A stretch of DNA of 59,054 nucleotides from a bacterium (GCA_037137535.1 JBAXKC010000016.1:1-59054), one strand, 5' to 3'. Counted from the stretch's first letter, positions 9,078 through 43,780 are shown. A program made the numbers and translations. Notes: a model not told the origin generated them from the sequence alone.

Positions 9078-9764
9078 TTAATGATTAGTGTTATTTATGG
9101 AAGACTTCTTTATTTCTTCTTGATCATCTGCCTCAGATTGCAATAAGAAATATATTATAGGTAAAATATCACATTTTTTATTGCCTTTTAGCGTTCCATT
9201 TATATATTTATCCCCTATGAAATTTGAATCTATTTCAAATTCCACGCTTTTTTCTCCAATAGTGCCAGTTATTAATGTTGGTTGAAATAGTTTTTTCTCT
9301 AATTGAAGATTCACATCTTTGTCTCCAATATATCCACTTAGTGTTTTGTTACCAAACCAACTTTTTTCCATTGCTAAATAAGTATCATTATTCTGATAAT
9401 CGCCTTTTGCAACGGTTGAACCCCAATTTCTACTTAATTCAATAGATATATTTTTATCTCCGATATTGCCGACAATTTCAGGATTTTGAAACCAACCTTT
9501 TTTTGTACTTAAGTTTATATTTTTATCTCCATAATTTCCTGTGTATTTTGTGGAGTTAAATAAATTCTTTTCTATAGTTAAAGCAAATTTATCATCATTA
9601 ACGTGTCCGCTGATAGTTCTATCTCCAAATAATGGCGTTGAGCTTTGTAGTTCAACGCTATCGCAATAATTACCAAAAGATACAGGTTTATTTAATTGTG
9701 TAGTTTGTCCGCATTTAATATTTGACTTTATAATTGGAATATTAGATAAAATATTTTTTATCAT
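9078..9764 (-). CDS. Hypothetical beta-repeat protein with N-terminal VSFG leader
   Basis: 228-aa ORF with about seven 22-23-aa repeats (GxIGDKxxxL...F/W). Confidence 0.75.
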   Translation of the reverse strand: MIKNILSNIPIIKSNIKCGQTTQLNKPVSFGNYCDSVELQSSTPLFGDRTISGHVNDDKFALTIEKNLFNSTKYTGNYGDKNINLSTKKGWFQNPEIVGNIGDKNISIELSRNWGSTVAKGDYQNNDTYLAMEKSWFGNKTLSGYIGDKDVNLQLEKKLFQPTLITGTIGEKSVEFEIDSNFIGDKYINGTLKGNKKCDILPIIYFLLQSEADDQEEIKKSSINNTNH

Positions 9765-13396: not shown

Positions 13397-15151
13397 CTAT
13401 TCTTTTAGGTCTGCTATGTTGAACATGTTTTTACTTTCTTCAGCAGCTTTGTCATAGTGTTTTTTTATAACATCTGACATTTCTTGAAGTTTACCCTTAT
13501 TTTCAGGATTTTTGGTGTCAAGATTGCCATAATCTCCCCATGTTTCAGCGTTGGAGAGTTTTTCGGCCAGTTCATTAATGCTCATTGTATTATAGTTTAT
13601 TGATTTTTTATTATCAGAAAGCTCGTCAGCTGCTTTCATCATTGAAATCAGAAGTTCTTTCTGCCATGCTTTACCTTTTTCGTTGTCCTCTTTGGGCAGT
13701 CCGTTTATGTTTCCGTCAAAAGACTTCATAAATGATGAGATACGACCTATTGACGTAGGTTCAAATCCGCTCATGACGATTTTATGAGGACTTAACAGCA
13801 TTGGGTCTGCCTCAATTAAAGTTTTTGCGGCAATTTTTCCTTCTTCGGTTTCCATGTGGTGACATAAAAGTACCGATCCGCTAATTTTTGATTCAGTTAT
13901 TCCATTGTTATCTGTGAGTTTTTCTTTAAGGGTGTTAATAAGTTCAGGGTTACTGATTTCTCCGTTCATTATTCCCTTATATACTTCCTGTGGGGATTTA
14001 TCCTTTATTTCGCTGAAGTTTTTTGAAACTTCCGGAAGGATTTGTTCAAAAGCTTTTTTATTTATTCCTCTTATACCTGTGTCAAATTTCATGTGTTCAA
14101 GTGTTTTAAGGTCTTTGGGTGATATTTCTTTAGGTTCTTCGCCTTTTGACGGGGCTTTAAATCTTTGTATCATTGTGTCTTCAATATCAGGAGCTTTATC
14201 TGCAATACCGTCTTGCGCTCCGGGAATATATTTGTTTTTATGGAGAATTACGTTGTTCATTACCCATTCAGAATCGTTGTTTATAAATAATGATTCGCTT
14301 ACGTTTTTAATAAATTTATTTGTTTTGGAGGAATCACCTAATAGTTGTGTTAAAAGACCTTCAAATTCGGGATTCTTAGTAAGAACATCTTTAGCAATTA
14401 CTCCGCCAATAGCCGGATGAGTAGCAAGGTTGCTAAAAGAAACGTTGCCCGGTACTTTAGGGTCATGCAGCCAACCAACCATAGCAGATTTTAAGATTTC
14501 GCTCTTCTCTGATGTTTGGGATTTAGCTTCAATGGCACATTTCCTTGCAACCTGTGCAGCGTGAGGAATAGCATCGGCAAAGCCCATTTTATATAACATT
14601 GGACCTGTTGTTGCAATGAATAAATCCATTATTTGTAATTCTTTGTCGCCTAGACCTATATCTTTTAAGGTTGATTTAAGGATTTTACTTTCTGTTTTAA
14701 GTTCATGAACGAAGTCTTTCGCTTCTTTTTCAAAACTTTCAGGCTTTTTGGTTTCGCCTCCAAGTTTTGTAAGTATAAAATTATTGTGTACTTGTGCTTT
14801 TGATTTGGCAAGATCTTGTATTGTTGATTCCTCTAGTGTTTTATTTTCATTAATAAGGCTAAAAAGAGAGTTTACAGTATCTCGTGTGGGAAAATAATCC
14901 GGTCCGCATTCCTCTGCTCTTTTTCCTCCGTGTAATGCCTCTGAAACCATTGCCATTTCTTTATCCGTAGGGTCATATTTCCCTGCAAAATTTATGTTAA
15001 TTGCGCAATAAGCTCGATGTGCGTTTAATGGAGTTTTTGCATATTTTGGCTGTTCGGTTTTAATTTCCTGTTGTTGTACAGTTTGTTTTTCAGCTGGTTT
15101 TAAGGCTTTAGTGAAGCTTATTTGAGGGTTAAAGCTAATTCTGTTTGTCAT
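13397..15151 (-). CDS. Hypothetical protein with ISF leader and probable HD-type metal-binding domain
   Basis: 584-aa ORF. N-terminal ISFN/ISFTKA/INFAG; H...LHDP...H...AD spacing typical of the HD superfamily. Confidence 0.7.
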   Translation of the reverse strand: MTNRISFNPQISFTKALKPAEKQTVQQQEIKTEQPKYAKTPLNAHRAYCAININFAGKYDPTDKEMAMVSEALHGGKRAEECGPDYFPTRDTVNSLFSLINENKTLEESTIQDLAKSKAQVHNNFILTKLGGETKKPESFEKEAKDFVHELKTESKILKSTLKDIGLGDKELQIMDLFIATTGPMLYKMGFADAIPHAAQVARKCAIEAKSQTSEKSEILKSAMVGWLHDPKVPGNVSFSNLATHPAIGGVIAKDVLTKNPEFEGLLTQLLGDSSKTNKFIKNVSESLFINNDSEWVMNNVILHKNKYIPGAQDGIADKAPDIEDTMIQRFKAPSKGEEPKEISPKDLKTLEHMKFDTGIRGINKKAFEQILPEVSKNFSEIKDKSPQEVYKGIMNGEISNPELINTLKEKLTDNNGITESKISGSVLLCHHMETEEGKIAAKTLIEADPMLLSPHKIVMSGFEPTSIGRISSFMKSFDGNINGLPKEDNEKGKAWQKELLISMMKAADELSDNKKSINYNTMSINELAEKLSNAETWGDYGNLDTKNPENKGKLQEMSDVIKKHYDKAAEESKNMFNIADLKE

Positions 15152-17904: not shown

Positions 17905-18033
17905 ATGATTATAGCTGAAGTTGGAGTTGTTATCGGTGTTGCTTCACTAGGCATTTATTTTATAAAATCAAGCCTTGATAATAAATTTGGGATAGAAAAA
18001 CCTATAAATAAGAATATATTTAATCAAAATTAA
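17905..18033 (+). CDS. Small (42 aa) single-TM protein
   Basis: AAGGGA RBS, MIIAEVGVVIGVASLGIYFIKSSLDNKFG..., followed by a terminator; below the ORF-track cutoff. Confidence 0.5.
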   Translation: MIIAEVGVVIGVASLGIYFIKSSLDNKFGIEKPINKNIFNQN

Positions 18034-18051
18034 ACTTAAAGAATAATAATT

Positions 18052-18087
18052 AAAGACCTCCTTATGCGTTACATAAAGGAGGTCTTT
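18052..18087 (+). terminator. Intrinsic terminator
   Basis: aaagacctcctt...aaggaggtcttt hairpin. Confidence 0.75.
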
Positions 18088-18204
18088 GCATATTTACAGG
18101 AGATGAAAAATTGCCTTGTTGGTTTAGATAGGCGACTATATTAAATCTTGTCGGGTAAAGCAGATAATATTAAAGTATATTTTGATTAAAAGGTAATTTA
18201 ACAA

Positions 18205-19182
18205 ATGAACTTTATTAAAGACAAAATTAATTATATGAAAAACTTTATAAGTTGTAATAAATGGTTATTACAGATTAGACTTATTTATCTCTTATTTTTA
18301 AATTTTGAAAATAAATCTTTGATTTTAAATATTTTGATTTTTGTCGGAGTAATTAAAACGTTTTTTAATTTTAAAATGATAAAATCGTTAATCCTCTATA
18401 AAAAATCAATAAATAACAATGAAAATACAATTGCATTTACTTATAAATATTTAGTACAAAAAGAAAAAAATAGAATCTTAGGATTTATTCTTTATGAAGA
18501 TAAAATGCCAGATAAGTTTTTAAATATACAAGATTCTGAAATAATAAATAAAATTCGTCATAATAAAGGCTCTATTATTTTAGGAGTGCATTATGGACCG
18601 GATTGTACCAATATGCTTTTAAAACACGCTGGAATAGATGCAAAGGTCTTATCGGCTTCATTAGGTTTAAATTATCTTCATTATATGTTGAAGTTTGGTA
18701 ATGAAAGTTTAATGAATTCCAAGACTAAATACTTTAGCAAAAATGACGCAATAATATTGGCCCATAAAGGCGAAAAAAAGCTTATTAAGCATATAAAAGA
18801 AGATAAGAATATTTTAATATTTTTAGATTTACCTATTCATAAAAAAGAAGTCGGGGTTCTAACTCCTTTCTTAGGAATGACAAGGAATTTTAGCTATTTT
18901 GCCTTTAAATTAAGCATTAATTACAATAAACCTATATTTATCTGTTATCAGGAAAAATCAGAAGAAAAAGATAAATATAATATCAGGTTTAAAGAATTGA
19001 ATAATTTCTCGACACAAGAAGAAGGTTTAAAACAATATTTGAGCTTTGTTGAAGAATTAATTAAAAAAGATCCTTCCATGTGGTTTTTTGCCCCTTTAAT
19101 GAAAAAATGGGGAAAAGAAGCATTGGAAATGCAACGAGAAAAACAATATGACCTACCTAAAAAAGAAGTTTCCGTACGATAG
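18205..19182 (+). CDS. Lipid A late acyltransferase (LpxL)-like family protein
   Basis: KGSIILGVHYG, ILIFLD, PFLG and ELIKKDPSMWFF match the family pattern; very AT-rich. Confidence 0.65.
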   Translation: MNFIKDKINYMKNFISCNKWLLQIRLIYLLFLNFENKSLILNILIFVGVIKTFFNFKMIKSLILYKKSINNNENTIAFTYKYLVQKEKNRILGFILYEDKMPDKFLNIQDSEIINKIRHNKGSIILGVHYGPDCTNMLLKHAGIDAKVLSASLGLNYLHYMLKFGNESLMNSKTKYFSKNDAIILAHKGEKKLIKHIKEDKNILIFLDLPIHKKEVGVLTPFLGMTRNFSYFAFKLSINYNKPIFICYQEKSEEKDKYNIRFKELNNFSTQEEGLKQYLSFVEELIKKDPSMWFFAPLMKKWGKEALEMQREKQYDLPKKEVSVR

Positions 19183-19602
19183 TAGGCAAGTTCTTTATAT
19201 TGTTTATACCAATCCAACTTATGGTTTGATAATTGAATTTAAAAAGCACACTAATCGAGCTGTTTGCTGCTATGTTTTTGTTTTTACTTCCTTTTTATTT
19301 TTCGAAAATAAAAAAGAAGTCGATGGATTCAACATCGAAATTGTATTGTGATGAAAAGAGTTTATAGCTATTTAATGAACTTCAATAAAACGGTTATTAA
19401 TTATTTTGCTGGAGCGGTATAAATTGTTTTCTTAAAAGATTAAATTTTCCTTAAAAAGTTTAAAAAATTTTCTAAGTTGTATTAAATTAAAATAAGAAAT
19501 GACACTGTAAAAGATTAAACAGATTAATTAGGTTTATAAAATCATATTTATAGTATCATTTAGAAAATGTTGTGAATAAAATACTTTGGAGGTATATGGC
19601 AC

Positions 19603-19905
19603 ATGTCATCGAACGAAACAAGAATTAAACCTTTAGGCGACAGAATTGTTGTAAAAGCAGTTGATGAAACAGAAACCACCACAGGTGGAATTTTTATACC
19701 TGATTCAGCAAGAGAAAAACCACAAAGAGGTGAAGTTCTTGCAGTTGGAGCAGGAAAACTTCTTGAAAGTGGAAAAAGAGAAGAAATGGACGTAAAAGTT
19801 GGCGACATTATTCTTTTCACAAAATACGGCGGTACAGATATTAAAATTAACAATAAAGAATATAAAATCCTTTCAGTTAGAGACGTATTAGGAATTGTTG
19901 AGTAA
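19603..19905 (+). CDS. groES: Co-chaperonin GroES
   Basis: IKPLGDRIVV, GGIFIPDSA and KYGGT. Confidence 0.98.
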   Translation: MSSNETRIKPLGDRIVVKAVDETETTTGGIFIPDSAREKPQRGEVLAVGAGKLLESGKREEMDVKVGDIILFTKYGGTDIKINNKEYKILSVRDVLGIVE

Positions 19906-19918
19906 GATTATTTGTTAA

Positions 19919-21565
<1,647 letters not shown>

Positions 21566-21594
21566 TCAACGATTATTATGTATAAGTAATATGT

Positions 21595-21627
21595 TAAAGG
21601 GTAATGCAAAAGCTGCATTACCCTTTA
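21595..21627 (+). terminator. Intrinsic terminator after groEL
   Basis: taaagggtaatgca...tgcattacccttta hairpin. Confidence 0.8.
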
Positions 21628-21806
21628 TTTAAAGTATCATCCAGAAGTGTTAAGAAATGTAACAAACAGAAGGATTTATTATAAACATAGTAGCAAGTTT
21701 TTTTTTTAAGGACTTCATGTAAATATACATAGAATTATTAAGAGAGAAGAGTTATTTTTATTTGTTTAAAGAAATAATATAATCTGCAAAAATTGAGGGT
21801 TAATAG

Positions 21807-24800
21807 ATGCTTGGATTAGAGAGAGAGTTAGTTTTATCATCTGGTAAAAAATATCAGCAAATATCAAAAAAAGAAGTAAGTTTTGCTGCATCAAATGTAA
21901 ATAATCAAAATAATAGATTTGATTCTATTGAAAATGTTCCTAACTATATTATAAACATGGTTGATGAAAAAATTAAGGAAGATCCTTATATTCACAGTTT
22001 TTGTCCTGAAGCCAAAAATGGAACTCCTCTTCATATAAAAAGGGAGCTTGAAAAATTCTTAACAAAAGCACCAGCATTAAATAAAGATATATTGGCCTCA
22101 AAGCCGGAGAAAGAAGCAATAAATACTTTTACGGCTTATTCTCTTACTTCTTATTTTATAATTAGTAAGGAATTAACCCTTTTAAACTTTAATAGAAATA
22201 AAAATAATGTAGAAAAACAGGCTACTTCTATAAATGATTCCATTCAACCACAAGATAAGAAAACCTTTTCTAATCTTGTAATTTCTGTTATTGAAGCTGA
22301 ATTTAAAAAATCAGGTTTAATTGAGAATAAATTTTCGCCAAAGGCAAAGGCCGAAATTGTGAAATTTACCGAAACAAAAGAGCCTGAATTAAGAAAAATT
22401 TTATCCTCAGATAAAAAAATTGATGAAACTGGTAGAAAAAAATTAAATAAAATTACAACTGAATTATATACAGAGCTTAAAAACAAAGGTCTAGTTGAGC
22501 AAAATGATTCAGGAATTGAAAGAGCTACGACAAGCAGAAATGCTCACAAATCACCCTTAAGACCTCTTTATAGTATTGGTATTGGTATATTAGAGTCATT
22601 ATTGATTCTTCAAAATACTGCACAACCAGTAATAGCACTCATGAATACAAATGATACATTTTTTGCCAGTCAAACGGCTGGAGTTCCCGCATTAGTTCAA
22701 GCTCAACAAAGCAGAGAACAAGTTAAAGAGGCCATGCTAAGTGGTGGTTATGTTTCACCTGTAGGTGCGGCTGAATATGTTTCAAACTTACCATCCAAAT
22801 TTAAAGAATTGGCTACTTCAAATGCAAAAGCAACTCCACATATTAGCTGGAGCCAGCTTTTTGTTCATACTGGAAGTGAAGATGCTTATTATGCAAAACC
22901 ACCTAGCAAGCAAGAATTTCAAAATCTTTATATAATGGCTAACATCATGGAAGTTATCCGACAAGAAGTTGGAGATAAAGATGTTAGTATTATTTCAGGT
23001 TATAGATCAACTATTTATAACTCAACAATAAAAGGTGCTGCTACAAAATCTCAACATACTGTTGCAAATGCAATAGATTTTTCAGTACCAGGTATGAATA
23101 TTCAAGATGTAGAAAAAAAGCTTGATAGGCTTCCTGTATCAATTGAATATAGCCAAGATACTGGAAAAAGCACTATTCACGTAGATAATAGAATGAGAAC
23201 TCAAGGTGTGATTTCTCGCTTTGCATGGCAATCTGACGGAAATATTTCTTCTGTCGGAATGTATAATTCGAATAATCCTAAAGAATCTACAGGAAAGCCT
23301 TTATATCTGAATAGTTTTGATGATATAGACTTTAATTACTTTAAAGATAGAGGTTTAGATAATATTACAGGTGAGTATGTTCAGCCAAAATCAGAATTTA
23401 CAGCACTTGCTAAAGCGTATCAGGTTGATCCTTCTAATGTGAAAACACAAATAGTTAAAGCTCCTAATTTAGAGCAAAACAAAACAAATATAAAAACAGA
23501 TGATAAAACAATTATTGCTTCGTCTTCTCCAAATATAAATCTTGGAGTTAAGCCAATGGACTTGAATCCTGAAGTTGAGTCAAGTGTTGTTACTCCTAGT
23601 GCAGGAGTTGCTCCAACTCCTGAGGTAGTTGTAACTCCTGAATCTACAGTTAAAACATCACCAGCACCTGAACCTGTTGTGATTCCCGATACAACTGTTA
23701 AAGCATCGCCAACACCACAAACTCTTATAACCCCTGATGCAACAATTAAAACCAAACCTCCTGTAATTAATAATTCTCCTATAGTTAAAGAGGAAGAATC
23801 AGGCTCTAAACCAGTTGTAATTAACACTGAAGCTGAACCTTCCAATGTAAAAGTTGGAACAAATACTTTAGATTTAAATCCTGTTGAATCGGAAATTAAA
23901 CAAGCTGAAACTAATGGAAATAATGCTGATAATAAGCAAAATACTGAAACTGATCAAAGACGTTCGACAAGCTCCCTTTTTGCTAAATCTTCAGAGACTT
24001 TACCATCTGAAAAATCAGTACAAGATCAGCCTGCAAGTGATACAAAATCAACGACAAATCCTTCATTAAATCCCATAAAAGATAAAGATAAGGCTGGAGT
24101 AACCTCTAATCCTGTTGTAATAAATACTACAGCTGAAACGTCTAATGTAAAAGTAGGGACAAATACTTTAGATTTAAACCCTGTTGAATCGGAAATTAAA
24201 CAAGATGAAACTAATGTAAATAATAGTGATAATAAGCAAAATGCTGAAACAACTCAAAGACGTTCGACAAGTTCCCTTTTTGCTAAGTCTTCAGCGACTT
24301 CACCATCTGAAAAATCAGTACCTAATCAGCCTACAAGTGATACAAAATCAACAACAAATACTCCATTAAATCCCATAAAAGATAATTCAACAGAAGCAGA
24401 AAAACAAACAAGTGACCTTAAAGTTGGCGTTAATTCACTTTCTTTAAACCCCTCCGCTGATGAATTAGCATCAACTACTGAGGAAAATAACAGTCAAACC
24501 GTTGAAGTTCAACAAAATAACAATTCTGAAACACCTCAAAGAGCTTCAACCAAGTCTCTTTTTGCTAAATCTTCAAATGATTCGAAAATTCCTGTAACGC
24601 CACAAATTGATGAGACTAATTCTGTAAAAAATGAAGAAAAGGGAAATACAAATAATAGTTCAAATATAAAAATAGGTATAAAAAATCTGGATATACAGGT
24701 ACAAGCTCCAGAAACACAAGCACCTCAAAACATAACTCCAAAAGCAGTTAAAACCTCTAAATTAACGGAATCGTCAAAAACTGCTCAAACGGAAGAATCA

Positions 24801-25346
24801 TCTGGCGATATATATTCAACTGATAATGTTGAAAATAAGTGGACAAATCTAAAGGTAAGTAATAAATTTAAAATAAAAGTTATTCAAATGTCTGAAAGAC
24901 TAAACATACATCCTGATTGGATAATGTCAGCAATGGCTTTTGAAACAGGCGATAGTTTTTCAGCTAGTGAAGTCAATAGCGTATCCGGAGCAACAGGCTT
25001 AATTCAATTTATGGATTTTACCGCTAAAGAGCTTGGCACAACAACTGCAAAACTGGCAAAAATGTCAGCGGAAGATCAATTGGATTTTGTAGAAAAATAT
25101 ATGCAAAGAGGAATTAAAGAGCATAAGTTGAAAGACGTAAAAGACGTTTATATGAAAATTTTTGCACCTTCAGCTGTAGGTAAAAGTGGTAAATTCGGCC
25201 TATATTATAAAGGAACAAGAGCTTATACTCAAAATGCAGCTTTAGATAGAGAGAAGAAGGGCGTAATAACTAAAGATGATGCAGCTTCCTTCGTTATAGA
25301 AAGAGGTAAATCTTTAGGTTTGAACCCTGAGGCAACAATTAGTTGA
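21807..25346 (+). CDS. Multidomain putative peptidoglycan hydrolase: VSF leader, peptidase M15, repeat linker, C-terminal lysozyme-like domain
   Basis: ISGYRS...SQHTVANAIDF...IHVD (M15 Zn ligands); WIMSAMAFETG...SGATGLIQFM...QLDFVEKY (lysozyme/SLT-like). Confidence 0.8.
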   Translation: MLGLERELVLSSGKKYQQISKKEVSFAASNVNNQNNRFDSIENVPNYIINMVDEKIKEDPYIHSFCPEAKNGTPLHIKRELEKFLTKAPALNKDILASKPEKEAINTFTAYSLTSYFIISKELTLLNFNRNKNNVEKQATSINDSIQPQDKKTFSNLVISVIEAEFKKSGLIENKFSPKAKAEIVKFTETKEPELRKILSSDKKIDETGRKKLNKITTELYTELKNKGLVEQNDSGIERATTSRNAHKSPLRPLYSIGIGILESLLILQNTAQPVIALMNTNDTFFASQTAGVPALVQAQQSREQVKEAMLSGGYVSPVGAAEYVSNLPSKFKELATSNAKATPHISWSQLFVHTGSEDAYYAKPPSKQEFQNLYIMANIMEVIRQEVGDKDVSIISGYRSTIYNSTIKGAATKSQHTVANAIDFSVPGMNIQDVEKKLDRLPVSIEYSQDTGKSTIHVDNRMRTQGVISRFAWQSDGNISSVGMYNSNNPKESTGKPLYLNSFDDIDFNYFKDRGLDNITGEYVQPKSEFTALAKAYQVDPSNVKTQIVKAPNLEQNKTNIKTDDKTIIASSSPNINLGVKPMDLNPEVESSVVTPSAGVAPTPEVVVTPESTVKTSPAPEPVVIPDTTVKASPTPQTLITPDATIKTKPPVINNSPIVKEEESGSKPVVINTEAEPSNVKVGTNTLDLNPVESEIKQAETNGNNADNKQNTETDQRRSTSSLFAKSSETLPSEKSVQDQPASDTKSTTNPSLNPIKDKDKAGVTSNPVVINTTAETSNVKVGTNTLDLNPVESEIKQDETNVNNSDNKQNAETTQRRSTSSLFAKSSATSPSEKSVPNQPTSDTKSTTNTPLNPIKDNSTEAEKQTSDLKVGVNSLSLNPSADELASTTEENNSQTVEVQQNNNSETPQRASTKSLFAKSSNDSKIPVTPQIDETNSVKNEEKGNTNNSSNIKIGIKNLDIQVQAPETQAPQNITPKAVKTSKLTESSKTAQTEESSGDIYSTDNVENKWTNLKVSNKFKIKVIQMSERLNIHPDWIMSAMAFETGDSFSASEVNSVSGATGLIQFMDFTAKELGTTTAKLAKMSAEDQLDFVEKYMQRGIKEHKLKDVKDVYMKIFAPSAVGKSGKFGLYYKGTRAYTQNAALDREKKGVITKDDAASFVIERGKSLGLNPEATIS
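23811..24385 (+). repeat. 300-bp-period intragenic duplication (100 aa), plus a degenerate third copy to about 24580
   Basis: 23811-24085 is a near copy of 24111-24385 (PVVINT...NVKVGTNTLDLNPVESEIKQ...QRRSTSSLFAKSS...LNPIKD). Confidence 0.9.
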
Positions 25347-25393
25347 TTTTTAAAATATAAGTTATAAAAAGAGAGAGAGAAAGAAGGATAACA

Positions 25394-27013
25394 ATGTTAA
25401 TTAATACTTATAATCCATTAGGAAACTTACCGTTACAGAAAAAAAGCAATATACAACACTCAAAAAATGAAGTTGGATTTGGAGAACAATCAAGAAAAGT
25501 ACTGCTTAAAACTTTAGAATATATTGGTAATATTGACAAAGTGCCGAATGATCCGACAGAACATATAAAAGCTGTTGCTAAGGCAAGTGATATTGAGATA
25601 AGTAATAAAAATGCTAAAGTATTCGGATTAACAATTAAAGGGATTTTAGATGATCCTGAATTAAAAATAGAAGGAAAAAACAGACTAACTGCTTATAAAG
25701 TTTATTTAAGATATTTAAATGATAATGCACCTTTGCTTGAAAACCCTCAAAAAGTTTTTCCAAAACCTGAAATGTTCAGCAATACTATAGTTGCGCATAT
25801 AAGTGATTATCTTGAAAAAAATACTCAAAGAGAATTAGAGTTAAAACTTAAACAAGAAGCAGAAGCAGCAAAGCAACCTGTTTACGAAGCTGAAGAGCCT
25901 GACGAAGTTGAAGAAATAAAACCAAAAAGACATCCGGCTAGAACTGAAGAAGCTGAAGAAGCTGAAGAAGCTGAAGAAGTAAGTTCAAGAAGACGCCCTA
26001 CAAGGACTGAAGAAGCTGAAGAAGGAAGACCTAGAAGACGTCCTTCCCGAGAAGAGACTGAAGAAGTAAGAAGAGAGCATCAAATAAGCCGTGAAAGATC
26101 TAAAAAAGTACAATCCGGCGGATGGCAAAATCAACTGTTAAAAAGAGAAAATATGGCATGGGCTGCGGCTGCATTAATGGGCACTTACATTGCAGCTCAA
26201 AATATAGGTTTACCACAGATTAATATTCCTTTTATGCCTAGTTCTGAAAGAGATGTGGCTGCTCAAGTAGATAAAACTAAAAATATTAATATGCCAGATA
26301 GAGTTCAAGCTGGTTCTGATAAAATTATTAATTCAGTGAAAAGTGGAGCGTTAACTTTATTTACTTTAGAAAAAAATGATGCACATGAAGGTGATAGAGT
26401 AACACTATATGGCAAAAGATTCCCTCTATACTTTGATCAGCAAAATCAAGTATGGGTCACTTTCCTTGTGTTTCCTAAAGAAGCTGCTATAAAAAATGGA
26501 AAAGATAACTACCCTGTATACTTACTAAGAAATGGAACAGAAGCCAAACAATTAGGTTTCTTAGAAGTAAAAGGCAGAGCTCCACGTCAAAATGAAACTA
26601 TTAAGATACCAACTTCTTCATCAGATACTAATCCTGCAAAAGAATCGGCCAGCTCATTAATCATAACTCAAGAGTCTTTTCTTACTCCTGTAAAAGGATC
26701 GTTAGTTCATAAATATGGTGATGAGCTTTCAAATGGAATAGCCACCGATAATGTTATGAAATCTAATAAGGGTAGTTCTGTTATAGCACCTGCCAGAACA
26801 AAAGTAGTTGACGTCTCTGATGATTCTATTACCCTTGATGGTGGATGTGGATTACAATTTACTGTTAGAGGCGTTGGGGCTAATAAAAATCTTCAAGTGG
26901 GGCAAATAGTTGAAAGAGGTTCAGAAATTGCTAAAGTCTCATCTGAAAATGGTGACTTTAATCTTAAATTTACTGTTAATGGTCTGCCAACAAACTTCTT
27001 TAATGGGAAATAA
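25394..27013 (+). CDS. Hypothetical membrane-anchored protein: VGFG leader, charged linker, degenerate M23/LytM-like C-terminus
   Basis: TM segment MAWAAAALMGTYIAA; C-terminal PVKG..YG..GSSVIAPA..VGQIVERGSEIAKV follows the M23 fold without the His ligands. Confidence 0.65.
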   Translation: MLINTYNPLGNLPLQKKSNIQHSKNEVGFGEQSRKVLLKTLEYIGNIDKVPNDPTEHIKAVAKASDIEISNKNAKVFGLTIKGILDDPELKIEGKNRLTAYKVYLRYLNDNAPLLENPQKVFPKPEMFSNTIVAHISDYLEKNTQRELELKLKQEAEAAKQPVYEAEEPDEVEEIKPKRHPARTEEAEEAEEAEEVSSRRRPTRTEEAEEGRPRRRPSREETEEVRREHQISRERSKKVQSGGWQNQLLKRENMAWAAAALMGTYIAAQNIGLPQINIPFMPSSERDVAAQVDKTKNINMPDRVQAGSDKIINSVKSGALTLFTLEKNDAHEGDRVTLYGKRFPLYFDQQNQVWVTFLVFPKEAAIKNGKDNYPVYLLRNGTEAKQLGFLEVKGRAPRQNETIKIPTSSSDTNPAKESASSLIITQESFLTPVKGSLVHKYGDELSNGIATDNVMKSNKGSSVIAPARTKVVDVSDDSITLDGGCGLQFTVRGVGANKNLQVGQIVERGSEIAKVSSENGDFNLKFTVNGLPTNFFNGK

Positions 27014-27037
27014 TTTAATAGAGAGTAAGGGTAAATT

Positions 27038-27997
27038 ATGATTAGTATGCAAACATATAATTTAAATTATCAATTGGGTCAAAAACAAAAAAATAATAAT
27101 CAAGTTAATAATAACAAAATTGCTTTTGGGATTAATGCAGCTAATATTCAGTCTAAAGAGGATGTTGAAGCTGCAGAGTTTCGTAAAAGACTTTCAGAAG
27201 AGTTTGATGATCAGCTTGAACTGGTAAGAAATCTTATTGGACAAGGTGATGATTCTAATAAAAAACCTGCGAATAGCAATTCTTCTGATGAGTTTAAAAC
27301 TGATGCAAGAAATGTCATATTAAATCCTGTTAAAAGAACTATTGTTGAAGTAAAACAAGATAATGGAGAATCTTGTTCAAGAGCATCTTTAATAGAAAAT
27401 AAAGTTAGGTCTGCCTTTAGCCAATATAAAGGTATTAGTTTGAATCCTCTTCAAGAGAATAGAACTTTATCTCAAGCTGATACCAGATGGATTGAATATA
27501 GAGATGAAGAACATGCTAAATTAAAACCTTATGATGAAGAAGATTATGCGATATTAGAAAATAATCTTAAAAACGAAGGTTTCAGCTTTAAACCTAATCA
27601 CTTAAAGAAGCTGTATCAAGTGTTTGCAACTAAAGTAGACAAGGAAATAAAAGCAAATCCTTCAAAATTCAATCAAATTGTTACAGCAAGACCCGGAAGT
27701 GTAGAGTTTGATTTATTAAAAGCATTTGATCCAAAGAAAAAAATGGATCTAAATAGACTTGTAAATCAAGAGATAATTACTGAAGTTGATGTTGATTGGA
27801 TTAAACACAGCACTTATAAGCCTAAAAGCATTTCTAAGCAGTTAGAACAATTTGAAAACAGTCTTTCTCAGGCAAATTACAGTTATGATGAAAAGCAGTT
27901 AATAAGGCTTCATAAAGTTTTGACAGATAAACAAAATAAAAAAGATATTGTTGAATCAGAAGCTATGCTATATGCTAGAGCGCTTGTAGGGGCTTAG
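27038..27997 (+). CDS. Hypothetical protein: IAFG leader and two copies of a novel ~75-aa domain
   Basis: 319-aa ORF with RBS; internal duplication AF..K..L..L.....I...D..WI...L....Y.Y....L.RL..VL. Confidence 0.75.
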   Translation: MISMQTYNLNYQLGQKQKNNNQVNNNKIAFGINAANIQSKEDVEAAEFRKRLSEEFDDQLELVRNLIGQGDDSNKKPANSNSSDEFKTDARNVILNPVKRTIVEVKQDNGESCSRASLIENKVRSAFSQYKGISLNPLQENRTLSQADTRWIEYRDEEHAKLKPYDEEDYAILENNLKNEGFSFKPNHLKKLYQVFATKVDKEIKANPSKFNQIVTARPGSVEFDLLKAFDPKKKMDLNRLVNQEIITEVDVDWIKHSTYKPKSISKQLEQFENSLSQANYSYDEKQLIRLHKVLTDKQNKKDIVESEAMLYARALVGA

Positions 27998-28029
27998 CAG
28001 TACTTGAATTTATAAAAAGGATTTTTCTC

Positions 28030-28749
28030 GTGTTAAATATGAATACCATTAGTAATATAAAGCAAATAAGCGTTAATTCTAAATCGAAAAAGGCAGAACA
28101 GCCTCAACAGAATAAAACTTGCTCAGTGAATAACAATCAAAGTCAAAAATTAAATAACTTTGAAATGGGACAGGCTATTAAATCTAATTTATTAATTTCG
28201 TTTAGTGCTTCAACAAAGAAACAAGTTGAAAATGAAGAGCCATATAGCTTGAGTGATTTAAGCTGGGACACTCCAGAAGATGAAGTTAAAACAAATTCTG
28301 ATGAAGCACCGACTGAAGAAGTAATTGGTTGGGATGATGAGCCACCAGTAAAAGTACCGTCAAAACAAAATGCTTTAATGACTTTTTATAACAATTTAAT
28401 AAAATCAAGTAAACAAGTAAAATCATTTGAAGACGGTGATGATGAATTCTTTGGCAAAGCGGCAGTAATAAAAGGTCAAGTGTTAAATGCTTTCGATGAT
28501 GATAAGCAAATGGATTTAAGTATGCTTGAAGATGATAATACTATTTCTCGTAATGAAGCTGATTGGATTATAAATAGCAAACAGAACGTTAAAATCAATG
28601 AAAATGATCGTGAAGATTATAAGAAGCTAAGTGAAAAACTTACAGATGAAGATTATGATTATGAACCAAAAACTTTAAAACGACTTTATAGTATATTAAG
28701 TCAAAAATTTAATTCAGCATCAGAAGCCATTTTCACTCATATTTTTTAA
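28030..28749 (+). CDS. Hypothetical protein: ISFSA leader and one copy of the same novel domain
   Basis: GTG start after AAGGA. N-terminus is paralogous to 28792; C-terminus is homologous to the repeats in 27038. Confidence 0.75.
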   Translation: MLNMNTISNIKQISVNSKSKKAEQPQQNKTCSVNNNQSQKLNNFEMGQAIKSNLLISFSASTKKQVENEEPYSLSDLSWDTPEDEVKTNSDEAPTEEVIGWDDEPPVKVPSKQNALMTFYNNLIKSSKQVKSFEDGDDEFFGKAAVIKGQVLNAFDDDKQMDLSMLEDDNTISRNEADWIINSKQNVKINENDREDYKKLSEKLTDEDYDYEPKTLKRLYSILSQKFNSASEAIFTHIF

Positions 28750-28791
28750 TATGAGTGAATTTATCATATATGAGCAATAAAGGATTTTTTC

Positions 28792-30933
28792 ATGTTAAAT
28801 ATAAACACTATTAACAATATGAAGCAATTAAGCCTAAATCCTAAAGTAAAAAAGGATGAAAAACTTAGCATTAACTTAAATAATAATAGTCATAATACAA
28901 CGCATGCCCTAAATAACTTTCAAGTTGGGCAAGCTATGAAATCAAGTTTATTAATCTCCTTTAAAGGTCAGGATGATGAGGCAATTAATACTCCTCAGAA
29001 TTTAAGTAATTTAAATTGGGATACAGGAGAAGAGGACGACGAACTTAAACTTGAAGAAAATGAGAAATTAAGCTGGGATGCTGACGAAACTGAAACTATG
29101 CCTGAAGTAAATAAAAAAACTAAAAAGACTGAAGTATTGACTTGGGATAGTCGTTCTAATCGAAATGAAAGACCAAAAAGAACTTCTCCAAAATTGTCAA
29201 AAGAAGATAAAAAAGAAATAGAAAGAAATAAAGTTTTAGATCAACTTGTATGGGAACGTAAAACCCGAAATTTCTTTAATACCGTAAAAGTAACTGCCGT
29301 AGGATCATTACTTGCAGCAGGAGCTATTTTTGCAAAGCCATATATACCTGTAATTCAGAAACAAGTTGATAACCTTTCAAATACAGTTGAGCTTGTAAAT
29401 AATCCTCAATGCGCAGCTCCTTCAGTAGCCGCTAAAGAGTTATTAAAGCCAACACCTTCAGAGTTTTTGAAAAAAGAAGGTGATACTTCTCCTGATCCAT
29501 ATCATTTAAAAACTACCGATATTTGTATTTCAAAAACTAAACTTGACCAGCTCAATTTGGTTAAGTCCTTAGTTGAGAGTAAAGAGCAATATTTAAAATT
29601 ATCTTCCGATGAAATACAAACTTTTAATGCAATGCGTCAAAAATCGCCATCGTATATGGAAGTTGATCATGAAGGAAATAGACAAAGTTTGATTACTTTC
29701 CTTCCTAAGCCAGTTAAGTTAAGTGATGGTAGAGTTTTACCTGAAGGCACTGTTGCAATTGAAACCTATATAAATAGAGGCGTAAATAATTCTAAAAAAA
29801 TTGAATTAATGGCTTTTATTGATCCAACAACAGGATTTATTGATAATGTTGAACAAGACTTAGTTAAAAATATGCCTAAAGAATTTGCTCCTAAATCTTT
29901 AGAAGGTCTTCAAGAAGTAAATAATGCTGCAAGACAAACAAATGAAACAATAAAAGAAATTATTAGCAGATATAATGCTAAAGATAATCCTGATGTCAGC
30001 GATACTTTAATTCCTCAACCTCACAGCAGCAGTTTCTTTAAAGTCAGACCTTATGATTTAGATGTTTTAGATCAGACCTTATTAAAAAATAATCATCCTG
30101 CTATAATTTATAAAAATGATGATGGCACTGTTAATATGATTTTTGCTCGTGCGGAAAATAATCAAAATAAACCTGTTGGTGAACAAGTAAAAGGTCTCTT
30201 CAATAAAAATCCGTTTGGTGAAGCTTTTAAAGGATTTACAGATAAAATTCAGTACTCTTTTGTGTTATTTGATAAAGGTGCAAAATTACCTGAAAATGCA
30301 AGCGTTAACGATCCCCATGTTGCGGATGAGATTTCTGATAAAGTGAAATCTTTTGTTTTTGTAACAAATGACGGTACGATTGGTATTATATCCAAAGATG
30401 GTATTTATATACCGCCTCTTAATACACTTGATTTCAACAAAGATTCTTTTGCAGAAATGCTTTCTGTCAAAGAACAAGTTCACTCAATGAGACAGCAACT
30501 TTTTGAAGACGGTAAATTAGCAAACTTTAGTGAACTTCTTGAAGGTAACGACAAGGTTACAAATATTTCCAGAATAGATTATCAGACAATTCCTAATGCT
30601 GTTGAGCCGGATGTAATAACAGCATTGCATGCATCTTTTATTGGCAAAGATTCTATTGTATTAAACGGACAAAAAAATATGGAACTATTGGCATTAAAAA
30701 AACATAGAGATTTTGACTCTAAGTCCATTAACTATGAATTTAGCGTTAATCCTATCGGTAGTAAAGTTTATACAGGTACAATCAATGAAAGCGGACAGAT
30801 AGGCTTTAATAATCCTGCTGCTACTCAATTTGAAACAGATACCGTAAAACGTAGAGTAAGAACATTAATTGAATCAGTAAGAAATCAATCTAATAATATT
30901 ACCGTTACTAATTCATCCGTACCGACAAAGTAA
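28792..30933 (+). CDS. Hypothetical single-TM protein with ISFKG leader
   Basis: 713-aa ORF; LxWD repeats, then TM VTAVGSLLAAGAIFA and a large unknown domain. Confidence 0.75.
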   Translation: MLNINTINNMKQLSLNPKVKKDEKLSINLNNNSHNTTHALNNFQVGQAMKSSLLISFKGQDDEAINTPQNLSNLNWDTGEEDDELKLEENEKLSWDADETETMPEVNKKTKKTEVLTWDSRSNRNERPKRTSPKLSKEDKKEIERNKVLDQLVWERKTRNFFNTVKVTAVGSLLAAGAIFAKPYIPVIQKQVDNLSNTVELVNNPQCAAPSVAAKELLKPTPSEFLKKEGDTSPDPYHLKTTDICISKTKLDQLNLVKSLVESKEQYLKLSSDEIQTFNAMRQKSPSYMEVDHEGNRQSLITFLPKPVKLSDGRVLPEGTVAIETYINRGVNNSKKIELMAFIDPTTGFIDNVEQDLVKNMPKEFAPKSLEGLQEVNNAARQTNETIKEIISRYNAKDNPDVSDTLIPQPHSSSFFKVRPYDLDVLDQTLLKNNHPAIIYKNDDGTVNMIFARAENNQNKPVGEQVKGLFNKNPFGEAFKGFTDKIQYSFVLFDKGAKLPENASVNDPHVADEISDKVKSFVFVTNDGTIGIISKDGIYIPPLNTLDFNKDSFAEMLSVKEQVHSMRQQLFEDGKLANFSELLEGNDKVTNISRIDYQTIPNAVEPDVITALHASFIGKDSIVLNGQKNMELLALKKHRDFDSKSINYEFSVNPIGSKVYTGTINESGQIGFNNPAATQFETDTVKRRVRTLIESVRNQSNNITVTNSSVPTK

Positions 30934-30952
30934 ATAGTTCTCTATAATTTCC

Positions 30953-31000
30953 AAAAAAGCTCTTCTCTATGATAATTACATCAAACAGAAGGGCTTTTTT
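30953..31000 (+). terminator. Intrinsic terminator closing the five-gene cluster
   Basis: aaaaaagctcttct...agaagggctttttt. Confidence 0.65.
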
Positions 31001-31118
31001 ATATGAAATTAATTTTTCTTCTTTTTTATATACTATCGGGGAATTAATTACCCAAAAAATACAGATACTATATTTTTATAACTTACTCGTTAATTATTTT
31101 AAGGGAGAGGGTATTTAA

Positions 31119-31346
31119 ATGTTAAAAATGAAAAAACATAAAACACAGGCTTTTAAGGTGATATCGCATGCAGTGAATGACAGTATAAAGGCTGCTGAAC
31201 ATAAAATTGTTGATATTAAAGATTTTATTGAGCCTGGTATTACAGAAGTGCAGTATAGACTTTCAAAACATCCTATTAGTGCAGGATTAGCACTTTTAGG
31301 TATTGGTATTGCGATAGTGGGTAGTATGAAACTTTTGAAAAAGTAA
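31119..31346 (+). CDS. Small C-tail-anchored protein (possibly ElaB/YqjD-like)
   Basis: Strong RBS; HP followed by a C-terminal TM and a KK tail. Confidence 0.6.
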   Translation: MLKMKKHKTQAFKVISHAVNDSIKAAEHKIVDIKDFIEPGITEVQYRLSKHPISAGLALLGIGIAIVGSMKLLKK

Positions 31347-31363
31347 ACTAAAAGCTTTTAAGA

Positions 31364-31405
31364 AAAAATAACATCCATGTTTATGACAAACAGGATGTTA
31401 TTTTT
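31364..31405. terminator. Bidirectional terminator
   Basis: aaaaataacatcc...ggatgttattttt between convergent genes. Confidence 0.7.
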
Positions 31406-32297
31406 ATTCTTGAGGGATTGAAGAAAGACCTTTAGCTTTGGTAATACCGCTCATTAATAATGAATTAGACGGAATAGAATGATTTGGGCTGGTAAAAGGT
31501 AAATCACCGTATTTATCGAGCACTCTATTTACGAGAGCCTGTTTATTTGGATCTTTATCAAAATATAATCTTGCATATAAAGCCACACCATCATTAATTA
31601 TTGCAGCATCTTGAGCGTTGTCAAAAACTTTTTGATATTTAGACAAATGATACCTGAAAGCCAGAGTATTTAAAGCCAGACAGTCAATTTCTTCTTGTAT
31701 AGAGCTAATTCCATCATTGTCTTTGGCATGTCCCGCTTCATGAAACATTGCTTCAGAAATAGCAAGTATGACCGCGGGATCTTTAGTATCTTTATACTTA
31801 TCATTAATAACAATTCTATTATTTTCACAATCCCATTGAGCATGGGCTTTTGGTGAATCTACAGGCGCAAATTCTACTTTAATTCCACGTTCAATTATTG
31901 TTTTTACAGCTTCTTCTCCACTTTTATATACAGTATTAACACCCATAGAATTTAAATAATCTAAATCTCCTGGTAAAAACTTAACTTCTCTTAATTTTTC
32001 CAATGCTTCTCTAATTGTCGGATCAACTATTTTGTTAATACTTTTAAGGCTTTGAGCCTGAGCAATCTGCGGAGTAACATAACTTTTAGCGTACATAGAT
32101 GCAACATTTAATCGAGCATTATTATTTGGAGTAAATTTATTATTTATAATCGGATTTGATGACATGTATTGCGGTTGAATTTTATTTACTGTTTTTACAG
32201 CAGTAGCTTGAGGCTTATTATTATTTTCAGCCTCGTTATTATTAATTCTTTGTTGTAAAAATGATTTAAAAAAATCATCGTTGCCAATTGCTGCCAT
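31404..32297 (-). CDS. Putative zincin (HEXXH) metalloprotease-like protein with Asn-rich N-terminus
   Basis: IVIN...EAMFHEAGHAKD...SIQEEIDC. Confidence 0.7.
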   Translation of the reverse strand: MAAIGNDDFFKSFLQQRINNNEAENNNKPQATAVKTVNKIQPQYMSSNPIINNKFTPNNNARLNVASMYAKSYVTPQIAQAQSLKSINKIVDPTIREALEKLREVKFLPGDLDYLNSMGVNTVYKSGEEAVKTIIERGIKVEFAPVDSPKAHAQWDCENNRIVINDKYKDTKDPAVILAISEAMFHEAGHAKDNDGISSIQEEIDCLALNTLAFRYHLSKYQKVFDNAQDAAIINDGVALYARLYFDKDPNKQALVNRVLDKYGDLPFTSPNHSIPSNSLLMSGITKAKGLSSIPQE

Positions 32298-32325
32298 GAT
32301 ACATCCTTTTATAACCCCGTATATT

Positions 32326-32354
32326 TATAAAAACATTCTAACTGGAGAAATTGC
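32326..32354 (-). promoter_or_regulatory. Conserved bipartite upstream motif, site 4
   Basis: GCAATT-N13-TGTTTT-TATA, 28 nt before the ATG at 32297. Confidence 0.7.
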
Positions 32355-32445
32355 ATGATTTATTAGTCTTTAGGGTTATTGAAATTTGTTTTTTAAATAA
32401 TATAATTAACTTGCCCGTAATTTAGCGTTATAAGGATAAAAAAAT

Positions 32446-32706
32446 ATGGCAGGAATTACAGTTTTAGGCGTTTTTCTTAGTGGAAGACATAATGTTGCTC
32501 CAAAATTTCAAGAAGTGCTAAGTACACATGGTTGTAGCATTAAAACAAGAATCGGATTACATAATGTGGCAGATGGTGTTTGCTCACCAAGTGGAGTTAT
32601 TTTGCTTGATGTTTTAGGCAGTGATGAAGAAATTTCTGCTCTTGAAAAAGATATTCTTGCAATTGAAGGAGCTCAAGTTCAAAAAATGAGTTTTCCTCAA
32701 GCATAA
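32446..32706 (+). CDS. TM1266-family iron-only hydrogenase system putative regulator (ACT-like)
   Basis: FQEVLSTHGCSIKTRIGLH...CSPSGVILL...QVQKMSF. Confidence 0.8.
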   Translation: MAGITVLGVFLSGRHNVAPKFQEVLSTHGCSIKTRIGLHNVADGVCSPSGVILLDVLGSDEEISALEKDILAIEGAQVQKMSFPQA

Positions 32707-32721
32707 AAAACTTTAAAACAA

Positions 32722-32843
32722 TTAATGAGAAAAGAAACAAGCAAATCAGGAATAATCTGAGACCCTGTTAGCGGACACTCGAAAAAGAGTGAATGTAGCA
32801 GGGTTCTTCTATTTGTAGAATTCGCCCTGAATAGAATCATTAA
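32722..32843 (+). ncRNA. Candidate structured RNA (long irregular hairpin; family unassigned)
   Basis: Nested pairings TTAATGA/TCATTAA, TCAGG/CCTGA, GACCCTGTTA/TAGCAGGGTT and CACTC/GAGTG; G-U pairs favour the + strand. Confidence 0.4.
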
Positions 32844-33012
32844 GAAATGTAAATAAGTGTAATAAGTACAATATAAAAGCCTCTTGCCCCAACAAGTAAA
32901 TATAAATTAACTTTACAGCTTTTAAATACATCTTTTGGCGGTTAATATAATAAAGTAATAATTTTATAATAAATGCAGAAGATAAATATAAAGAAGAGAG
33001 AGGCAAATCGCT

Positions 33013-43749: not shown

Positions 43750-43780
43750 ATAATAAGTATATTTTTTATTGGGGCATAAA

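Follow-up and report, generated by a model that had tools for sequence, protein, structure and literature searches.

The DNA analysed here, referred to below as the window, is a stretch of 59,054 nucleotides (GCA_037137535.1 JBAXKC010000016.1:1-59054) and represents contig C16 of a 2.95 Mb genome in 81 contigs, with 31% G+C and an estimated completeness of 100%. The host is an uncultured freshwater relative of cyanobacteria; the groEL of the window was 73-77% identical to that of metagenome-assembled genomes (MAGs) labelled Candidatus Gastranaerophilales, and 83% identical to its best match. Melainabacteria (Vampirovibrionia) are common in guts and waters, nearly all of them are uncultured and, one algal predator apart, their lifestyle has been deduced from metabolism alone. 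Downstream of groES-groEL, five open reading frames (ORFs) on the + strand, g1 to g5, occupy positions 21807-30933, separated by gaps of 47, 24, 32 and 42 nt, and a purine-rich stretch resembling a ribosome-binding site precedes every one of them. Their G+C content at third codon positions (GC3) was 0.16-0.20, versus 0.19 for groEL. The five products carry, weakly in g1, an N-terminal motif here called the tag (an Asn-rich N-terminus, then φ-[SAG]-F-[KGST]-G), and the first of them joins two predicted wall-cutting domains. All features of the cluster given below lie on the + strand.

A preliminary description, made from the sequence alone, had reported five co-directional genes with 24-47-nt gaps between two terminators, and both the layout and the boundaries hold. 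The groEL terminator (21595..21634) comprises a 14-bp hairpin at 21595-21627 (-20 kcal/mol, z -5.2) followed by a U-run, and it separates groESL from g1-g5. The terminator 3' of g5 (30953..31005) comprises a branched hairpin at 30953-31000 (-21.5 kcal/mol, z -6.1) followed by U6. A consensus terminator scan missed both hairpins. The end of g4 coincides with an AT-rich hairpin of 12 bp (28732..28759, -14.2 kcal/mol, z -5.1), absent from the preliminary description and possibly an attenuator; RNA contigs continue past it. The string AGAATT-N13-AGTTAT, proposed earlier as a weak regulon-motif match, is present at 21731..21755, but a comparison of 6-mers in the 200 nt upstream of 75 tag genes and 2381 others found no shared regulon motif, leaving it putative. 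The best 6-mer, CAATTT, occurred upstream of 27/75 tag genes versus 340/2381 others, and the remaining 6-mers mirrored AT-richness.

The first gene, g1 (21807..25346), encodes 1179 aa with a weak tag, an orphan N-region, an M15 peptidase, a linker and a lytic transglycosylase. Residues 377-460 (22935..23186) matched Peptidase_M15 (PF08291, E 1e-9, 38.9 bits against a cut-off of 23.2), PF05951 (31.3 bits against 27) and the endolysin family phrog_894. H417 and D424 (H-x6-D) aligned to the zinc-binding His and Asp of 1lbu_A, and H458 lies within IHVD. Residues 1015-1172 (24849..25322) matched the PDB lytic transglycosidase 9udh_A (E 1.2e-36), for which a literature search by name (9UDH) found no paper, the PDB 'Internal protein' 9k2v_E (E 1.3e-13), and the phage families phrog_196, a baseplate hub (E 6e-40), and phrog_4928 (E 6e-42); Pfam SLT matched this domain weakly (E 0.016). 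The catalytic-Glu motif AFETG (E1046) is kept in both PDB alignments. Of the earlier calls, the lysozyme-like domain was strongly confirmed and M15 scored above its cut-off; g1 is predicted, from its intact catalytic residues, to be active in both hydrolase domains.

Between the two enzymes of g1 lies a Ser/Thr/Pro/Asn-rich linker with a tandem repeat (23804..24385; 300-bp unit, 1.9 copies, 89% matches), and g1 holds three copies of the peptide SLFAKSS (residues 723, 823 and 917). The g1 tag, VSFA at residues 24-27 (21876..21887), is atypical and fails the stricter filter, with no Gly at +2 and fewer polar residues. A hydrophobic segment at residues 255-268 (22569..22610; Kyte-Doolittle 1.45, containing a Glu) may be a weak membrane anchor. 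Residues 1-340 had no homologue among the 648-2064-aa proteins of a 5.8-billion-protein collection. Conservation was sampled in 40 relatives, all of the same order and from families other than the host's own, and the g1 domains were found there as separate small proteins only, in 8/40 genomes. Transglycosylase homologues at loci L176 (1186-2016), L178, L179 and L180 are 276-312 aa long, lack a Sec signal and have Phe/Asn/Gly/Ser-rich N-termini; at two of these loci the neighbour is a 209-aa protein that by eye is zinc-carboxypeptidase-like.

The second gene, g2 (25394..27013), encodes 539 aa with a tag, a helical N-terminal domain, an acidic/Arg-rich low-complexity stretch, a hydrophobic segment and a beta-rich C-terminal region with a degenerate LytM-like part. 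Its tag, VGFG at residues 27-30 (25472..25483), has F29 and G30 invariant in three family members. The helical domain (residues 33-141, 25490..25816), delimited by the family alignment and AlphaFold, is the best-conserved part of g2, with a predicted local distance difference test (pLDDT) score of 75-84 over roughly residues 34-115. The homologues P0007 and P0008 (51% and 45% identity) keep the tag, this domain, the hydrophobic segment (residues 255-273, 26156..26212; Kyte-Doolittle 1.15) and the beta-rich C-terminus. A LytM/M23-like stretch (PF01551; residues 456-519, 26759..26950) has no catalytic histidines: across the three family members the C-terminal 130 residues hold 1, 0 and 1 His, with no HxH, and the sole HKYGD of g2 is not kept in P0007 or P0008. 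If g2 is a LytM domain at all, its sequence would make it a dead one. Of the earlier call, a transmembrane segment plus a dead M23 domain, the missing catalytic motifs stand, but the M23 match is below its cut-off and the segment is only weak. No public metagenome contig scanned with the g2-family profile gave a match.

Genes g3 and g4 share a domain, as had been proposed. The 319-aa product of g3 (27038..27997) has the tag IAFG at residues 28-31 (27119-27130), a long helix and two helical domain copies of ~90 aa (27368-27634 and 27686-27937). The 239-aa product of g4 (28030..28749), with a GTG start, has a g5-like N-terminus, the tag ISFS (28195-28206), two acidic Trp-Asp motifs (28252-28359) and a single copy of the g3 domain (28444-28713). 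AlphaFold pLDDT for the domain was 80-90, and no known fold was found for it: the best E in the PDB by Foldseek was 0.39, and the best Z in a wide VIA structure search was 5.2, within noise for helical models; these results do not make the fold a new one. Three weak foreign homologues of g3 (P0003-P0005), all keeping the tag motif, were recovered among 1.8 billion representatives; public metagenome contigs scanned with P0003 gave no match. The GTG start of g4 lines up with the ATG of g5 (MLNMNT versus MLNINT), and the first ~100 residues of the two are 43-46% identical; a gene caller had placed the g4 start at an ATG 9 nt downstream (P0006).

The last gene, g5 (28792..30933), encodes 713 aa with the tag ISFK (28954-28965), acidic Trp-Asp motifs (29005-29157), a hydrophobic anchor segment at residues 165-185 (29284-29346; Kyte-Doolittle 1.78) and an orphan C-terminal region, in line with the transmembrane segment plus unknown domain of the preliminary description. 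The 528-aa C-terminal region had no relative in the 40 same-order genomes or in 5.8 billion word-indexed proteins. In the ESM Atlas g5 gave no feature hit, and the Atlas's own model had a pLDDT of 0.40.

The window stretch is present in freshwater metagenome runs, and two RNA and two DNA runs of that study were mapped as contigs onto positions 18000-33000. RNA run X2 covered 26/30 bins of this 15-kb stretch, with non-zero depth in all bins of 21507-31025. A groESL contig of 2046 nt (19513-21558) ends before the groEL hairpin. Contigs at 25034-25457 and 26284-27080 span the g1/g2 and g2/g3 junctions, and others lie at 22512-23279 (g1), 25504-25866, 27090-27628 (g3) and 28263-28623 (g4). Bins 18000-19502 and 31527-32027 were empty in both RNA runs, while the depth of DNA run X1 was 31-52 in every bin; since the empty RNA bins have full DNA depth, DNA carry-over is unlikely as the RNA source. 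The cluster is therefore transcribed in its freshwater habitat. Co-transcription of g1-g5 is supported and falls short of proof, because a contig over two genes can arise without a single transcript.

The cluster is accessory and lineage-specific. As a cluster, g1-g5 were not found in the 40 same-order genomes, so they are not a conserved Sec-exported division set, and the groEL flanks of 80 related loci (up to 10 kb each) gave no tblastn match to g1-g5 or to the downstream gene. Among the PHROG matches listed (E up to 0.01), all fell in the two enzyme regions of g1; g2-g5 and the downstream gene had none. Nothing recognisable as a structural, integrase or holin gene was seen near the cluster. 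The earlier statement that no phage or holin gene is present agrees with this confinement of the PHROG matches and with the native GC3.

The N-terminal tag is real and lineage-borne. The tag statistics rest on 2489 ORFs which, start codons included, came from a crude ORF caller. In this set [VIL][SAG]F[KGSTA] peaks at residues 10-30, with 0.019-0.021 per protein versus ~0.005-0.008 beyond residue 100, and the five-residue tag pattern gave 66 matches in residues 1-75 versus 13 and 9 in internal control windows. Among 86 hydrophilic seeds, Gly at +2, which had not been selected for, occurred in 44% (7.7-fold) and Asn at +3 in 24% (3.6-fold). Tag proteins tend to begin M-[IL]-x-N, and their N-termini are Asn/Gln/Ser/Thr-rich and acid-poor, in a composition test that is partly circular. 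The loosest union of filters took in 111/2489 ORFs; in this set, tag genes form runs of 5, 4 (g2-g5) and 3 along the genome, and runs of at least 5 appeared in 1/2000 gene-order shuffles. Similar N-termini occur in related genomes. The leader described earlier on all five products is good in g2-g5 and weaker in g1.

No Sec signal was found in g1-g5, as had been stated: by a crude hydropathy test, made with no dedicated predictor, no hydrophobic stretch lies before or just after the tag motif, and the hydrophobic segments of g1, g2 and g5 are internal. Inspection by eye showed no RR motif of a Tat signal in any of the five N-termini, and none of the NCBIfam models matched the tag. A literature search turned up nothing that describes such a tag, or a type III system in Melainabacteria, the supplements of PMC4451040 and PMC5877343 lying outside that search. 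Four more tag proteins are encoded in the window at 9078-9764 (-), 13397-15151 (-), 43769-45580 (+) and 56681-58015 (+); these had no above-cut-off Pfam match (two had none of any score) and no NCBIfam match, and for the last of them a similar-looking N-terminus (NISFKGYDARPL) is encoded at locus L004 of a related MAG. At C25:29118-30881, five paralogues, each of 111-115 aa, lie in tandem and start with the tag (…QVAFSGNIG).

Of the 61 seed proteins outside the window with 150 aa or more, 54 were scanned against Pfam. No Pfam family was found in 27/54, and another 8/54 had evidently been picked up in error (FlgE, an ABC ATPase, a methyl-accepting chemotaxis protein, a radical-SAM protein, a dihydroorotate dehydrogenase, RpoC2, an aldo-keto reductase and an S41 protease bearing an ordinary signal peptide). 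Tagged envelope enzymes were an Amidase_3 protein and a VanY protein, each with a hydrophobic segment after the tag. The other tagged proteins are of normally cytoplasmic enzyme types: a starch-synthase-like protein, two nucleotidyl transferases, a guanylate-kinase-like protein, two alpha-amylase-family proteins, an isoamylase, a GH77 enzyme, two DHH proteins, a GATase, a PTP-like phosphatase, a calpain-like protease and a pentapeptide protein. Each of the three families that were checked has a canonical gene as well as the tagged copy, which is an additional, divergent paralogue (tagged versus canonical: guanylate kinase, 91 versus 168 bits; GlgA, 57 versus 271; GH77, 61 versus 227). Because tagged copies are divergent paralogues of cytoplasmic-type enzymes, the tag is not a simple replacement for a Sec signal; it marks an accessory, fast-evolving protein set. 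Among the 2489 ORFs, acidic Trp-Asp repeats were found only in g4, g5, the tagged Amidase_3 and one evident false positive, which ties the cluster to that amidase. The amidase (C3:49250-50437) is laid out as tag, acidic Trp-Asp repeats, hydrophobic segment (residues 119-140) and catalytic domain. Eleven class-level Amidase_3 matches were rejected as its orthologues, being Sec-signal paralogues that match in the catalytic domain only, at 33-39% identity.

Two type III export sets occur in the genome. The type-A set lies at C3:62058-67096. The type-B set is divided between C13:60-10372 (a FliI/EscN-type ATPase, FlhA, FliH, FliF, FliE, FlgB/C, two FlgF/G-like proteins and an SLT enzyme at C13:7461-8117) and C7:21484-25525 (FliO/P/Q/R plus a FliMN_C protein), and by Pfam the two parts together look complete. 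There are two FliP genes and six FHIPEP matches, comprising two full-length FlhA and four proteins with only the C-terminal domain of FlhA (FlhA-C-only). A tree of 20 FlhA proteins has two clades with 100/100 support. FHIPEP matches were present in 41/41 same-order genomes and flagellin in 30/41. In family f3 (99% complete), 10/10 genomes lacked flagellin and any high-scoring clade-A-type FlhA match, and each keeps one full-length clade-B-scoring FlhA match and one FlhA-C-only match. The three f3 genomes placed in the tree all fell in clade B, and the two checked for rod proteins and FliP have both, with FliP in single copy. The type-B FlhA/FliP set looks like a conserved second export system rather than a decaying flagellum. 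Passages of PMC4451040 and PMC5877343 discuss flagella loss and 'partial gene sets'; the literature searches returned no account of a separate system.

The FlhA-C-only proteins (C34:182-1675, C2:107681-109057, C27:25204-26991 and C60:3193-4608) have no membrane part. The hit class of the C34 type (~495 aa, with a conserved 60-aa N-domain) was found in 41/41 same-order genomes, and the C34 gene adjoins a sigma-70-family factor and a response-regulator/Hpt gene. A Tad-type pilus cluster, recognised by eye (secretin, CpaB/E/F-like, TadB/C-like), lies at C7:29640-36694, ~4 kb from the type-B FliOPQR genes; its secretin match was tested, and there are three secretin matches genome-wide. The VirB4-type type IV marker was searched for in the genome and not found.

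Tag hits in other genomes were counted as matches in residues 1-75, with two internal windows as controls. G028, a flagellin-less f3 genome with clade-B FlhA and an FlhA-C-only protein, gave 6 hits in 400 kb (~5 credible) versus 2 and 2 in the controls, and G041, from another family and with an FlhA-C-only protein, gave 7 in 400 kb (2-3 credible) versus 1 and 2. G093, with no FHIPEP match, gave 3 in 800 kb (none credible) versus 10 and 6. G057, with a single clade-B FHIPEP match, one FliP and no FlhA-C-only protein, gave 0 in 400 kb versus 0 and 0. With the host genome included, the tag occurred only where FlhA-C-only genes occur (5/5 genomes), a co-occurrence that rests on few, related genomes and a patchy tag density, and it does not track clade-B FlhA alone. 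Tag density is uneven in the host genome too (6 loose hits in C1 and C2 together), so that counts from 400-kb samples are weak. The idea that FlhA-C-only genes adjoin tag genes was rejected (1/4 within two genes versus a background of 0.14, P 0.46). The predicted complex of an FlhA-C-only protein (19-row alignment) with residues 1-45 of the g3 leader scored 0.00, which speaks neither for nor against.

We give a probability of roughly 0.45 to the reading that g1-g5 form an accessory, transcribed wall-cutting operon whose members are routed by a lineage-specific, non-Sec tag. The M15 peptidase of g1 would cut peptide stems or cross-links and its phage-type transglycosylase would cut glycan strands, with the long repeat-bearing linker joining both activities. 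As a dead LytM-like protein, g2 may regulate a hydrolase, either g1 or the tagged Amidase_3. The g5 product would be a membrane-anchored orphan, and g3 and g4 would be soluble, helical-repeat cytoplasmic adaptors. The tag would act as a Sec-independent routing signal to one export or insertion site, and the hydrolase domains would act outside the cytoplasmic membrane. We infer the export of the five products, its route, the roles of the partners and the target wall. The evidence tilts towards a foreign (prey or competitor) or locally breached wall over core cell division, because the cluster is unconserved, the transglycosylase is of a phage-penetration type and the linker is recently duplicated. 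The exported peptidoglycan module of the preliminary description stands in its wall-active part, through the g1 domains and their catalytic residues, but export driven by the leader stays putative. The leader need not be an exporter, since the tag also occurs on paralogues of cytoplasmic-type enzymes and would lie on the cytoplasmic side in anchored members.

Several observations weigh against the routing tag and the wall-cutting operon. Some of the tagged enzymes depend on substrates found in the cytoplasm (the starch-synthase-like protein, the nucleotidyl transferases and the guanylate-kinase-like protein), which speaks against an export signal. A hydrophobic segment follows the tag in 27/86 seeds, with basic residues before it, by eye, in the inspected cases; this would place the tag in the cytoplasm and the C-terminal enzyme in the periplasm by ordinary insertion (VanY, Amidase_3, g5). 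The C-terminal domains of g1, g2 and g5 could thus reach the periplasm by ordinary signal-anchor insertion, and the weakness of the g1 and g2 segments leaves their topology ambiguous. The M23 match of g2 is sub-threshold (E 0.004, 17.6 bits against a cut-off of 28.7), the g2-family profile had no PDB match at E up to 1, and the AlphaFold model (mean pLDDT 45; C-terminal part ~45-58) is too low in confidence to confirm the fold. No immunity-like gene was recognised in the cluster, the gene calls behind the tag statistics are crude, and G057, of the same class and with a type-B set, has no tag match in its 400 kb, so the tag is not tied to that system alone. Much of this suits an endogenous envelope-remodelling complex, which we regard as a serious if less probable explanation. 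In it, g1, g2, g5, Amidase_3 and VanY would be single-pass proteins with a cytoplasmic N-terminus, inserted by Sec/YidC; the tag and the Trp-Asp motifs would be cytoplasmic docking peptides, and g3 and g4 cytoplasmic regulators, as FtsEX controls EnvC and amidases. Such a complex would accommodate the segments downstream of the tag in g5, g1, g2, Amidase_3, VanY and the PTP-like protein, the conservation of the cytoplasmic N-domain of g2, the Trp-Asp motif connecting g4 and g5 with the tagged amidase, and the tag on cytoplasmic-type enzymes. Degenerate LytM proteins (EnvC, NlpD) activate Amidase_3 enzymes. A core function is, however, at odds with the absence of the cluster from relatives. The g1 and g2 segments are also too weakly hydrophobic for confident anchors, 59/86 seeds have no segment, the tag is strictly N-terminal and acid-poor like export signals, and the tagged enzymes are divergent duplicates, not housekeeping copies.

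It is unlikely, though worth stating, that the tag is the signal of an undescribed flagellum-derived type III system, with clade-B FlhA/FliP and FlhA-C receptors, and the cluster a set of its wall-breaching effectors. Far less probable is a prophage or phage-tail remnant, in which g1 would be a virion-associated lysin and g2-g5 decayed phage genes. The g1 transglycosylase does match phrog_196, phrog_4928 and 9k2v_E best, and its M15 part matches endolysin PHROGs, but the lack of PHROG matches in g2-g5 and of any recognised structural, integrase or holin gene, the GC3 close to that of groEL, the host-lineage tag and transcription in situ alongside housekeeping genes all oppose it. We find it hardly credible that an AT-rich genome with Asn/Lys-rich N-termini produced the tag by compositional chance, and that the five genes are functionally unrelated neighbours. 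At 31% G+C such N-termini might be expected, and the loosest filters do let in clear false positives; against this, the pattern is enriched by position, Gly at +2 is enriched without having been selected, the motif's F and G do not vary within the g2 family, and the g3 homologues preserve the motif too. The AT-rich G057 (34% G+C) lacks tag matches, tag-gene runs exceed those of shuffles, and g3/g4 and g4/g5 share domains.

Several known systems resemble the cluster in part. The FtsEX-EnvC/NlpD and AmiA/B/C system of E. coli likewise links a dead LytM-type protein to wall hydrolases, with the possibility that a cytoplasmic part controls a periplasmic activator, and a tagged Amidase_3 that has motifs in common with g4 and g5 is present in the genome. 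In contrast to that system, the cluster has no FtsEX genes, the partner encoded in cis is an M15-transglycosylase fusion and not an amidase, the LytM match is sub-threshold, the cluster is unconserved among relatives, and its proteins have no Sec or lipoprotein signals. The C-terminal domain of g1 is a clear sequence relative of phage virion-associated lysins and 9udh_A, with the catalytic Glu motif, and wall-penetrating lysins typically unite, as g1 does, a peptidase with a glycan-cleaving domain in a single long polypeptide. Unlike these, g1 has no phage context, and it has the host-lineage tag and an orphan 340-aa N-region. By analogy, the tag may resemble the hydrophilic, uncleaved, strictly N-terminal signal of type III substrates (FlgJ and EtgA types, Chlamydia glycogen enzymes), and the tag set likewise mixes soluble proteins and proteins with membrane segments, divergent glycogen-metabolism enzymes included. 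Type III signals are not known to have a conserved sequence motif, whereas the tag has one; the type-B set also has its own SLT enzyme, leaving g1 unneeded as its wall-lytic component. Like the type VI effectors Tae and Tge, which come with adaptor and immunity genes, g1 is an accessory, fast-evolving, multi-domain hydrolase with small orphan partners. Unlike them, the cluster lacks type VI/VII marker domains and a recognisable periplasmic immunity protein, the genome as a whole not having been searched for those machineries.

Just 3' of the g5 terminator, a 75-aa ORF (31119-31346, +) has a hydrophobic C-terminal tail and no Pfam family; for the whole stretch, RNA contig depth peaked there, at 9.67 in X2, and X5 has a contig of depth 8.1. 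The convergent downstream gene (31404-32297, -), with no Pfam family, encodes a metallopeptidase-like motif, HEAGH...SIQEE (HExxH plus Glu), which two paralogues (C1:50223, C34:4570) retain; in one of the two, the N-terminus is tag-like and a g4-like SLSDFSW motif is present. RNA depth was 0 over 31527-32027, within this gene. At the window end, a 286-aa ORF (58159-59019, -) is copied at C37:23093-23953 (-), with one difference in the first ~70 residues, and may be an assembly-breaking repeat.

The presence of the tag on at least 66 fast-evolving proteins offers a testable handle on sorting or export without Sec signals, and the cluster supplies enzymes with assayable activities for testing it. 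As an export signal, the tag would be an unusual recognisable motif, and secretomes would become predictable across tag-carrying lineages; as a docking tag, it would point to an unknown organising centre gathering wall hydrolases and paralogous metabolic enzymes. Should the type III reading prove true, the arsenal would comprise up to ~100 effectors, including divergent paralogues of glycogen enzymes, kinases, phosphatases and proteases, the system would persist in flagellin-less Gastranaerophilales, and Chlamydia-style secretion would serve a non-photosynthetic relative of cyanobacteria in a life of attacking other cells or exploiting them. Whether the tag is an export signal or a docking tag, the 'partial flagellar gene sets' that a passage of PMC5877343 mentions for non-motile members look like a separate, conserved, paralogous export system and not like decay.

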